Made by a program: the position numbers and the translations under genes
Shown here: positions 1 through 50,855 of the stretch, in pieces
How positions within the stretch are numbered: the stretch's first letter is position 1
How the letters are laid out: every line of letters starts with the position of its first letter
Assembly: GCA_043809745.1 (NCBI GenBank)
Contig: JBDROU010000079.1
Span: 1,163 to 65,162, forward strand
DNA from: a bacterium
GTDB taxonomy: Bacteria > Elusimicrobiota > JBDRMW01 > JBDROU01
Direction of reading: 5' to 3'
Length of the DNA: 64,000 bases
Notes under the pieces: model-generated
The model's input: only the letters and a program-made list of their open reading frames with translations
Databases searched by the model: none
What the model was told of the DNA's origin: nothing

Positions 1-2600
1 GTGAGATTTATACTGAGATCCTGGATCACAATTACGAAATACACACAACGAATTCGTATAATAATCTAAACCAGATTACAAACAGCCAGAAAACAGAAAC
101 TCGCGGTGATAAGATAACAGAGGAAACGGCAATATACAGTTATGACATTTACAATCGGTTAAAAACTTCAACAACCGAAATTCATGAGCGGGCCAAAGAT
201 GGCAGTTCGCTAGATCTGGATAACAGCTATACTGTGATGCTTGCCATAGGTTCATATTCCTATATTGACGAATCAGGTAATGAGCATAAAGTTGATGCCG
301 GATATAATGACCTGGATCAGGTGATACGTCAGGAAAAGACAGTCATAGAAGGTGCCAAGCATGTGGTGGAAGCTTGCACTGAAGACATTGAGTATGATAC
401 GAATAACAGGATAGAATCAAATACGATCAGCAGGCGTGAGATGGAGCGCAAAATAGATGATAAAACTGGTAAGTTTGTGCTATTTGATGTAAACGGCGAT
501 GGTATAATATTAGATAGCTTAAGCTTTATAAGTATGCAAATACAAGAATATTCAGTGTTAGGGTTAGTAAAACGCCAGACGCGTATGAGCGTCACAGATG
601 GGCTTACGGTAGTAGAGACATCTAAATCGGATCTAAAATACAATACAAGCGAACATCTGGTATCAAGCTATACAGAGTATCATGAGTCCGGCACGCCGAA
701 TTCCGCGGGCAGCGATGCGCTAAACACAACTTACAACATCTTACTGACAATAAAAGATGATGGCATCAATGAACTCGGACAAACAGAAAAGCAGACAAAG
801 ATTAAGGAGGAGCTGAGGGACGGCGCTGTGATAACAAAGAAGACCGATGAGGTGATGAGCTATGATGAAAAGAACCGGTTAGAGTATTCACATATTACCA
901 CAACAGAGAAGAGCATAGATGCTGAAGGTGAGGTTGTACAGAATAAAGTATACACATCAGAAAGTTACATTGGCTGGGAAAGCTTTAAGGATGCAAGCGG
1001 TGAAACGGTGGAGGGCAGGGAAGGCTACAATGAATTAGGGCAGGTAGTATTTATGAGGAAGGTAACGGAAGAAGGGAACAAGACTATCGATGAATACAAC
1101 CTGCATAATAAGATATACGATAATTCTAACCGTTTAGTTTACAGCTACAGTAAGATTAATGAACGCGGTTCGGATAACGAGGGGAACGAACTAAATCATT
1201 CCTATACTGTAGAAAACCGCATAGCGAAAAGCATGTTCATTAATAAAATTACAGACCCGAAGAATGTGAGTATAACAGAAGCTTCCTATATAAGCGGTTA
1301 TAACAATCTGGGCCAGGTGATCTGGCAGGAGCAGATAACAAAGGATGCAGGCAAGACTACGACCAGGATTACCAATACAGAAAATGGTTACAACAGTTCA
1401 GGATGGCTTAAGCATTCAGATTATAAGTTCAGTGAAACCGGATTATCAGGTGTAGAAGGCAGTGATAATTTGAACAAGCAGTACAGGGTGGTGACTGATG
1501 TAATAGATTTTAATGAACGCGGGTTGGCTATTAAGCAGACCAGTACAAGCACAGATCAGAACGAAGCGGCTAACAAGACAATTGAGGATATGACAATCGG
1601 TTATGACAAACAAGACCGAACCATTAATACAATCACAGCGGTCACAGAAAAATCGACAGACGGGCAAGAACACAGCTACACCGTTGAAAGTTCAGTAGGC
1701 GGGTACAGCTATACTGATGAGCGCGGCAGTATTGTGGAAGTAGGAGAGTATGAAGGTTACAACGCATTAGGCCAGGCGGTCTTAACCTGCCGAAAAACAA
1801 CAGACGGCGGCATCACACGGGAAGAGTATGACATAAAGGGCGCCAAGCGATCATATAACGCTTCAGGGTTGCTTGAGCACAGTATAAGCCGAATTCATGA
1901 GACCGGGAAAGCGGATATTGGTGTTGAAGGCGCCGAGGATTTGAATGATTATAAGGAAGTAGAGCTCAACATAGAATCATACAATGATCTGCAGCAGGTG
2001 AATAAACATACCAGGATAACCCAAGATCTCATAGTTGGTGAGGTAGTAGGTGGAAACGAAACGCTTGAGCTAGGCTTAACCACTACTGAGGAGGCGCAAT
2101 TCACCTATGATGATCAGGGCAGACAGAAAAAGGTGGAAAGGCTTGTCAGCCAGCAGGAAAAGGACTGGAGCGGAATTTTGAAAGATGTTTCCGGTGACGG
2201 CATCGTTCTTGACAAAACCAGTTATTCGGTATTCGAGATACTCAGCGGTTACGATGCTCAAGGGAATTATTATGAAGGATATAACGATCAATCCCAGCTG
2301 GTGATGAGCAAGACAACCACTTATGAAGATGCTCAACTTTTTTCTGGGGATATTTCGCTTAATGATGTAGATGAGATGGATCTCTCACAGGTAAAGAGGA
2401 CCACCGAATCCACCTACTTTAATGAAAGCGCCAAAACTTACGATATTAATAGATACAAAACTCAATTCAGCAACGCATCTTTAGCCTATACCCATAGCAA
2501 CGCGAGTATCAAAGACCTTGATTATCAGACCGGCGAAAAATTGAGCGCTTCATACGAGTATACCAGCATTTTTAATTATAACGAGCTAAATCAGCAGACA
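1..2600 (+). repeat. intragenic segmental duplication, copy 1 (partner at 4229-6850)
   Basis: nt 1-44 gtgagatttatactgagatcctggatcacaattacgaaatacac matches 4229-4272 gtgagacttatacggaaatccttaatcatgattacgaagtatac. Protein colinearity (IGSYSYIDESGNEHKVDAGYNDLDQVIRQEKTVIEGAK vs IGHYTYIDESGNELTVETGYNDLDQVIRQERTIIEGAK; LTYDDQGRQKKVERL vs LTYDDQGRQKRVERL) holds over ~870 aa at constant ~4.2-kb offset. Confidence 0.8.

Positions 2601-50855: not shown

Follow-up and report, generated by a model that had tools for sequence, protein, structure and literature searches.

A protein-coding gene of at least 16,950 codons with a YD/RHS-like array and a putative SecA-type module in an Elusimicrobiota contig

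The giant gene and its parts

The window analyzed here, a stretch of 64,000 nucleotides (nt) of contig JBDROU010000079.1 (assembly GCA_043809745.1, positions 1,163 to 65,162) from a bacterium of the Elusimicrobiota lineage, carries a giant open reading frame (ORF) that is still open at the window start. We have analyzed the integrity of this ORF, the regions of the encoded protein, a putative motor module with similarity to the ATPase SecA, the sole relative of this module, and the genes downstream. Residues are numbered such that residue i corresponds to nt 3i..3i+2. The ORF and its parts (TM, transmembrane; HMM, hidden Markov model; AF2, AlphaFold2; NBD, nucleotide-binding domain) are organized as follows.

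nt 3..50855, + strand: giant ORF, 16,950 sense codons, stop at 50853-50855, 5'-truncated by the window edge
nt 3..19202 (aa 1-~6,400), + strand: YD/RHS-like beta-hairpin repeat array (YD motifs, self-derived HMM, AF2/Foldseek)
nt 13593..13964 (aa 4531-4654), + strand: fascin/FRG1-type beta-trefoil inserted in the YD array (Pfam, PDB)
nt 19254..19661, + strand: hydrophobic cluster, aa 6418-6448 as a strong TM-like helix, then two weaker segments high in Gly/Ala (aa 6513-6553)
nt 19950..21602 (aa ~6650-7200), + strand: linker of low complexity in which P, S, A, K and E abound (composition)
nt 21603..41621 (aa ~7201-13873, ~6,700 aa), + strand: K/L/A/E-rich region with helical propensity (composition and propensity only)
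nt 26958..31439 (aa 8986-10479), + strand: repeat of ~150-177 aa in seven copies, within the helical region (self-comparison)
nt 36744..37466, + strand: two more TM-like segments (aa 12248-12270 and 12470-12488; hydropathy 1.59 and 1.44), RR after the first
nt 41622..44873 (aa 13874-14957), + strand: conserved motor module shared with the sole known relative (E 2.6e-30), SecA-aligned part aa 14046-14495
motor motifs, NBD1 side: Walker A GTGGGKT (K14070), Walker B FDEF (D14204/E14205), GMTGT (14489-14493)
motor motifs, further C-terminal: GSVGTD (14695-14700), QAWGRSRG (14724-14731)
nt 45603..46802 (aa 15201-15600), + strand: basic patch, net charge +34, with an acidic stretch before it
nt 48774..49763 (aa 16258-16587), + strand: C-terminal module, copy 1 (26% identity to copy 2, E 3.5e-21)
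nt 49863..50786 (aa 16621-16928), + strand: C-terminal module, copy 2 (self-comparison; module of ~330 aa)

Frame +3 is the only long stop-free stretch of the + strand, with zero internal stops over 50.8 kb, whereas the other five frames contain 564, 640, 1008, 1220 and 1634 stops over the same 50.8 kb. Even at the lowest stop rate among these frames the probability of a stop-free frame is ~e^-564, and chance is thus excluded. The GC content per codon position is uniform along the ORF, with GC1 (0.43-0.54) above GC2 (0.30-0.42). The first 400 residues align, from the very first residue on, to aa 1410-1807 with 66% identity, and the best internal DNA repeat pairs nt 1-1346 with nt 4228-5567 (71% identity). 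Since this internal repeat begins at nt 1 and aa 1, the coding sequence includes the first 230 nt and the gene extends upstream. The ORF contains no Ns and no near-identical internal DNA repeats, its two tandem DNA arrays are trivial, and there appears to be no sign of collapsed repeats or assembly error in the sequence. The ORF is very probably one real gene for a very large protein of at least 16,950 aa, whose N-terminus lies beyond the window. This agrees with the initial annotation, made from the letters of the window, which had described one gene longer than 50.8 kb that begins before the window and is coding within its first 230 nt here. The GC content at third codon positions (GC3) is 0.36-0.51 per 3-kb bin in the giant gene and 0.25-0.38 in all ten flanking genes, and local GC dips are present inside the gene at ~nt 16-18 kb and ~40-42 kb. 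Both the GC3 excess and the dips could reflect a foreign origin or a different codon selection.

In the N-terminal third of the protein (aa 1-~6,400) the residues T, E, D, N, Y and S are enriched. This third is strongly acidic, carrying a net charge of -20 to -39 per 400 aa, whereas the remainder is near neutral. The YD motif, Y[DN]xxG[RQ][LVIM], occurs 25 times in this third, compared to 0.1 occurrences expected from shuffles, and is absent from the other 10,550 aa. With an HMM built on aa 1740-2070, 28 matches cover aa 15-5,830 apart from gaps at the trefoil and at aa 5350-5525; a fixed period was not found in the region by simple autocorrelation. The AF2 model of aa 1341-2191, for which the alignment consisted of 24 internal paralogues, is an all-beta chain with long hairpins (predicted local distance difference test score, pLDDT, 72.2). 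When compared to the PDB by Foldseek, the first six places are taken by an Rhs protein of the type VI secretion system (T6SS; 8qja, E 3.5e-12), teneurin-2 (E 3.7e-10) and the Yersinia YenB/RHS2 BC toxin (E ~6e-6), with TM-scores of the model to the Rhs, teneurin and YenB cocoons of 0.09-0.20. Both the recurrent YD motif and the fold of antiparallel beta-hairpin sheets by which RHS/YD proteins are recognized are thus found. Pfam RHS_repeat (PF05593) and NCBIfam TIGR01643 (YD-repeat) and TIGR03696 (RHS core) have no match on any tile. The autoproteolysis motifs DPxG[LW], PxxxxDPxG and PxxxxDPxGL do not occur in the 16,950 aa, and LPXTG and RTX motifs are absent from the giant protein. Judged by motif and by the modeled local fold, the array is YD/RHS-like; it lies outside the membership of the sequence models and is devoid of the Rhs toxin-release apparatus.

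The trefoil that interrupts the array scores above the Pfam cut-offs of both FRG1 (36.8 bits, cut-off 27) and Fascin (36.3 bits, cut-off 23.1) over aa 4531-4625, and matches 7zoh (a GH18-associated domain, E 2e-7) and FRG1 in the PDB. TM-like segments were called solely by Kyte-Doolittle hydropathy in a 19-residue window. The cluster that follows the array has maxima of 1.96, 1.53 and 1.56, and aa 6418-6448 is the sole strongly hydrophobic stretch of the protein. In the linker, P, S, G and Q together make up a fraction of 0.28-0.34 and hydrophobic residues a fraction of 0.17. The helical region has no match in Pfam or in the PDB sequence library. The only notable tandem DNA array of the gene is located in this region (nt 38284-38375), where an in-frame 12/36-nt unit is present in ~7.7 copies, CAGCTGAACAGA.

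The protein had been described beforehand as a concatenation of distinct regions rather than a monotonous repeat, and distinct regions are indeed what we find: the YD-like beta region, the beta-trefoil, the TM-like segments (by hydropathy), the linker (as a low-complexity stretch) and the duplicated C-terminal module are all recovered. In the case of the helical region the predicted character holds by composition, but its size is ~6,700 aa (aa ~7,200-13,900) and not 4.9k. The accompanying statement, by which only the motor and the trefoil resemble characterized families, went too far: in both motif and fold, the N-terminal third is similar to RHS/YD-repeat proteins.

The motor module and its sole relative

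The motor module contains, in the order of SecA as judged by eye, the motifs EFGTGGGKTS, YVNAL (YLNAL in SecA), GFQF (GFDY in SecA), Walker B, an insert of ~285 aa at the position of the preprotein cross-linking domain (PPXD), GMTGTL, GSVGTD and QAWGRSRG. Walker B and the stretch next to it read FDEFQSAILEKTSAIVGG, set against the matching stretch of SecA. As a reference we used an alignment of eight SecA/SecA2 sequences, comprising E. coli SecA (checked against the PDB) and seven diverse homologues from plasmid records. A profile-profile comparison by hhalign of the two-sequence motor alignment (the giant and its relative) with this reference gave a probability of 92.3% and an E-value of 5.4e-7 over 287 columns. 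The aligned span places aa 14046-14495 of the giant onto SecA residues 86-395, and includes Walker A, Walker B, the insert at the PPXD, the junction behind it and GMTGT. The real score of 63.8 stands well apart from the controls: the two reversed alignments reached 16.9 and 18.3, an unrelated alignment taken from this protein 13.7, 30 column shuffles at most 25.1, and 30 shuffles of 15-column blocks, in which the motifs are kept and their order is lost, at most 33.1.

Other approaches do not recover this relationship. Pfam has no match on the motor at E<=0.01 (5,000-aa tiles), NCBIfam has none, no SecA of the PDB is matched by phmmer or hmmsearch, and an HMMER profile of the motor does not score on E. 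coli SecA. A block-chain motif test against SecA was not significant (z=1.3), and single-sequence hhalign of motor and SecA was weak (6%, or 1% with other settings). On the NBD2 side there are only short motif resemblances, of GSVGTD to GRGTD and of QAWGRSRG to QLRGRSGRQG. Single-sequence hhalign comparisons with E. coli UvrB, Rep, RhlB, UvrD, RecQ, HsdR, RapA and Rho all remained below a probability of 6%, with a recognizable alignment in the Walker A region only. Based on the profile comparison, we propose that the module is a remote SecA-type NBD1 with an insert at the PPXD position. Of the SecA-like motor named in the initial annotation, the NBD1 and PPXD position have gained statistical support; NBD2 has not, and the sequence searches by Pfam, HMMER and against the PDB are blind to the module as a whole.

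As a possible intermediate we considered, and rejected, a protein of a mycobacterial plasmid that has a divergent SecA-like stretch; by hhalign it is unrelated to the motor. This protein is a hypothetical protein of 3,473 aa on plasmid pJCM18538 of Mycolicibacterium arabiense (5238-15659), with a SecA-like stretch of 25% identity. It adjoins a 9,434-aa 'toxin glutamine deamidase domain' protein (16225 onward) and genes of the ESX/type VII secretion system.

An exhaustive phmmer search with aa 13801-15000 against 1.84 billion representative proteins returned one match, the protein P0001 (E 2.6e-30, 24-29% identity). It is encoded on a 10-kb contig of an NCBI metagenome-assembled genome (GCA_003508135.1, DNTS01000166.1; L002), which is one stop-free frame from end to end. 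The same organism (99.96% DNA identity) is represented by the 50.9-kb JGI contig Ga0156290_136 (L003), of which 22.2 kb are readable and stay free of stops in one frame, over at least 7,406 codons and at 65% GC. Between both giants only the motor of ~1,080 aa can be aligned. The relative is Pfam-dark, has TM-like segments after the motor and a very different composition, and no YD motif occurs in the 7,406 aa seen. Its Walker A is degenerate (ETAFGKTS), and the Walker A catalytic Lys/Thr, the DE of Walker B, GMTGT, GTD and an arginine-finger-like GRxRG are kept in both motors. From these alignments, the motor is a conserved cassette inside otherwise unrelated giant proteins of organisms with 42% and 65% GC. 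That it is the only conserved part argues for selection on the module. Word-indexed searches yielded nothing for the motor, its profile or the YD/TM junction, and are weak negatives since they also missed P0001. Scans of genomes, metagenomes and viruses with the N-terminus or the motor yielded nothing except the JGI contig of P0001's organism.

The two assemblies of the relative differ by an indel of ~170 nt (L002 nt 5175-5376 versus L003 nt 7904-7937). The NCBI gene call splits the ORF in two at this indel, although the frame is stop-free across the whole contig, which shows how annotation can fragment giant ORFs.

Comparison with known systems and possible function

Giant proteins with a comparable architecture have been described in Omnitrophota by West-Roberts et al. 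(2023; bioRxiv 10.1101/2023.11.21.568195). These proteins combine TM regions with divergent SecA DEAD and preprotein-binding domains, lack the scaffold and wing domains, and also carry attachment domains and RHS-like antiparallel beta tubules; similar proteins are present in some Actinobacteriota. The protein described here shares with them a length of more than 10,000 aa in one ORF, membrane-associated segments, a mostly Pfam-dark sequence, the status of a sequence singleton, a SecA-like NBD1 with an insert at the PPXD position, RHS-like beta structure and a lectin-type binding domain. No scaffold or wing was detected in our comparison alignment, which extends to SecA residue 668. The features by which this architectural class is recognized, i.e., an ORF of at least 10,000 aa, TM segments, a divergent SecA-like domain and RHS-like beta structure, are all found. 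There are differences as well. The published proteins were found with the Pfam SecA_DEAD model, to which the motor of the present protein is invisible at E<=1; there are ~3-5 TM-like segments instead of 'numerous' ones; the visible 16,950 aa contain no enzyme, dockerin, TSP3 or C39/S8 peptidase domains; and type II secretion or sugar-import genes are not found nearby. The domain sets of the Archaeovorin and Dockerin subtypes (glycosyl transferase/hydrolase, methyltransferase and NUDIX, or dockerin plus TSP3) likewise have no Pfam match in the visible part.

According to published definitions, in which 'large' means at least 10,000 aa and 'giant' at least 30,000 aa, the visible part of the gene is 'large' and not 'giant'. 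Of 916 catalogued long Omnitrophota proteins, 137 (15%) were Pfam-dark, and genes of up to 147,155 codons are reported. Nielsen and Lui (2026; bioRxiv 10.64898/2026.06.07.730766) clustered 5,761 proteins of at least 10 kAA (thousand amino acids), 80% of which were sequence singletons. The earlier characterization of such proteins as extremely rare was thus overstated in view of the number counted by Nielsen and Lui. The same applies to its suggestion of an undescribed system, the combination of size, TM segments, divergent SecA DEAD and RHS-like beta structure having been reported by West-Roberts et al. What seems to be new is the particular sequence family, with one detectable relative in the data searched; on present evidence this is not a categorically new system.

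Similar to the Rhs proteins of T6SS (8qja, 8cp6), the BC components of Tc toxins (4igl, 5kis) and teneurins (6vhh, 8fia), the N-terminal array has the YD motif and a predicted antiparallel beta-hairpin sheet, and teneurins likewise join their YD region to a TM anchor. Unlike these proteins, it fails PF05593, TIGR01643 and TIGR03696, shows no Rhs core and no DPxGL, and superimposes poorly as a whole. With at least 5,800 aa the array is ~4-8 times as long as a cocoon, and it is N-terminal to the membrane segment, which is followed by a tail of 10,000 aa. The motor shares with SecA and SecA2 the collinear Walker A, YxNAL, GF and Walker B with the 'T(P)xIxG' stretch, the insert at the PPXD site and GMTGT; the insert closes in a junction resembling VDExTG...G..(W/F)S.G..VA.E.KE of SecA. 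In contrast, identity to SecA is ~15%, no counterpart of NBD2, scaffold, wing or C-terminal linker was detected, and the module sits inside a giant protein, at residue ~14,000, whereas SecA is a free protein of ~900 aa.

We propose, with even confidence, that the giant is a membrane-anchored adhesion or contact protein equipped with its own SecA-derived motor, and represents a divergent variant of the giants of West-Roberts et al. (2023). From N- to C-terminus its architecture would consist of an acidic YD/lectin array, a hydrophobic anchor, a linker, a long helical region, a SecA-type ATPase and the C-terminal modules. The acidic YD/trefoil part would be extracellular and bind surface glycans or proteins of another cell, and such binding could serve adhesion, contact-dependent attack or symbiosis. 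The cluster at aa 6418-6553 would anchor the protein in the cytoplasmic membrane, so that the linker, the helical scaffold, the motor and the duplicated C-terminal module would be cytoplasmic. The ATPase would presumably power translocation, be it of the huge ectodomain to which it is joined, of the ectodomain of sister copies or of a cargo. A translocation role has been proposed for giant proteins with SecA domains (West-Roberts et al., 2023).

Several observations weigh against this proposal. Pfam SecA_DEAD (PF07517) and SecA_PP_bind do not match the motor at E<=1 even in 800-aa tiles, the alignment of the NBD2 region with SecA is not significant (probability 0.3%), and the AF2 model of the motor, built on two sequences, reached a pLDDT of only 37.6 and was not used for a fold search. 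The topology is read from the hydropathy scan and the N-terminus is outside the window. TM segments are far fewer than in the published giants, and secretion-system genes are not found in the 13 kb downstream. The motor is ~7,500 aa beyond the hydrophobic cluster and is synthesized last, after ~14,000 residues, and hence cannot help in the co-translational export of its own chain. It would instead need to work after translation, upon other copies, or upon a different substrate.

Among the alternatives, it is very improbable that the stretch is not one gene but an assembly chimera, a series of adjacent genes without intervening stops or a pseudo-ORF. The two GC dips, the GC3 above that of all flanking genes and the gene call that splits the ORF of the relative would fit such an origin. 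They are set against 16,950 codons without a stop where every other frame has hundreds, the uniform codon-position GC and the freedom from Ns and near-identical repeats; moreover, repeat families cross the presumed junctions, and the relative is likewise continuous over more than 22 kb in an independent assembly. An Rhs-type polymorphic toxin or encapsulation device also seems rather improbable. Here, as in T6SS Rhs effectors, the BC components of Tc toxins and teneurin-like proteins, the YD repeats would form one or more closed cocoons that deliver a toxic C-terminal cargo, and the regions downstream would be cargo or processing machinery. This would account for the YD enrichment and for the T6SS Rhs, teneurin and YenB/RHS2 structures at the top of the Foldseek results; giant multi-toxin proteins are known from actinobacteria, and SecA-like helicase-related domains occur among effector-associated modules (PMC3482391). 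It is difficult to reconcile with the silence of the RHS_repeat, YD-repeat and RHS-core models, the lack of DPxGL and PxxxxDPxGL motifs anywhere and the low TM-scores to real cocoons. The array would suffice for several cocoons, the ~10,400 aa that follow it greatly exceed what could be encapsulated, and a recognizable toxin, immunity, PAAR, VgrG or T6SS gene is not found.

A passive giant adhesin or surface fiber, exported by the ordinary Sec or another system, with the SecA-like module as a relic or in a non-translocating role, is in our opinion unlikely. Giant adhesins without built-in motors are common, the NBD2 motifs are weakly SecA-like and the Walker A of the relative is degenerate, all of which speaks for such a passive protein. 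Yet the motor alone is conserved across two otherwise unrelated giants of widely differing GC content, and its catalytic residues and motifs from Walker A to GRxRG are kept in both. An extension of our proposal of an adhesion protein with a SecA-derived motor is possible, though we hold it as doubtful: the motor may define a so far unrecognized, deeply divergent branch of SecA-derived ATPases, present only inside otherwise unrelated giants, that acts as a dedicated and self-contained export or extrusion engine for surface arrays of several thousand residues, with the YD array as a new, extended RHS-like fiber rather than a toxin cocoon.

Giant bacterial genes are recognized but almost wholly uncharacterized. 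A conserved motor of ~1,080 aa with identifiable catalytic residues, joined to a surface-type YD/lectin array, provides a compact set of testable parts. Both the cassette that forms the motor and the exceptional length of the YD array make the gene worth following. Should the motor function as a derivative of SecA, it would speak directly to the question how polypeptides tens of thousands of residues long are exported or inserted. Its sequence has drifted beyond the reach of Pfam and was found by profile-profile comparison only, and published counts of SecA-bearing giants are therefore probably underestimates.

Genes downstream of the giant gene

The ten flanking genes lie within 50944-63135, mostly on the strand opposite to the giant gene. 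Identical records of five flanking proteins were sought in the available collections, and none was found. The following features were identified.

50944-51888 and 52019-52954, - strand: tandem paralogous proteins of 311-314 aa with a C-terminal Macro domain (Pfam E ~1e-14) and a weak DarG-macro match
53392-54189 and 54152-54811, - strand: complete AbiE abortive-infection / type IV toxin-antitoxin pair (AbiEii E 1.9e-94, AbiEi E 3e-60)
55513-57495, - strand: 660-aa orphan ORF, divergent to the 886-aa gene
57722-60382, + strand: 886-aa protein, last ~250 aa adenosine deaminase, best match PADLOC 'CARF5--CARF_ADA' (E 1.7e-11)

Immunity or T6SS genes are not present in the 13 kb downstream. The two macro-domain paralogues are 69% identical at the DNA level and each carries an unassigned N-terminal part of ~140 aa; a DarT-like partner was not seen. 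The AbiE genes overlap and are located 2.5 kb from the end of the giant gene. The N-terminal 630 aa of the 886-aa protein have no match, and CRISPR-Cas genes are not found in the window. The other genes encode a thioesterase, a flavodoxin-like reductase, Ldh, UvdE, tRNA-Ser and tRNA-His. Ldh is 44-47% identical to sequences of Anaerolineales, cyanobacteria and Bacillota alike.

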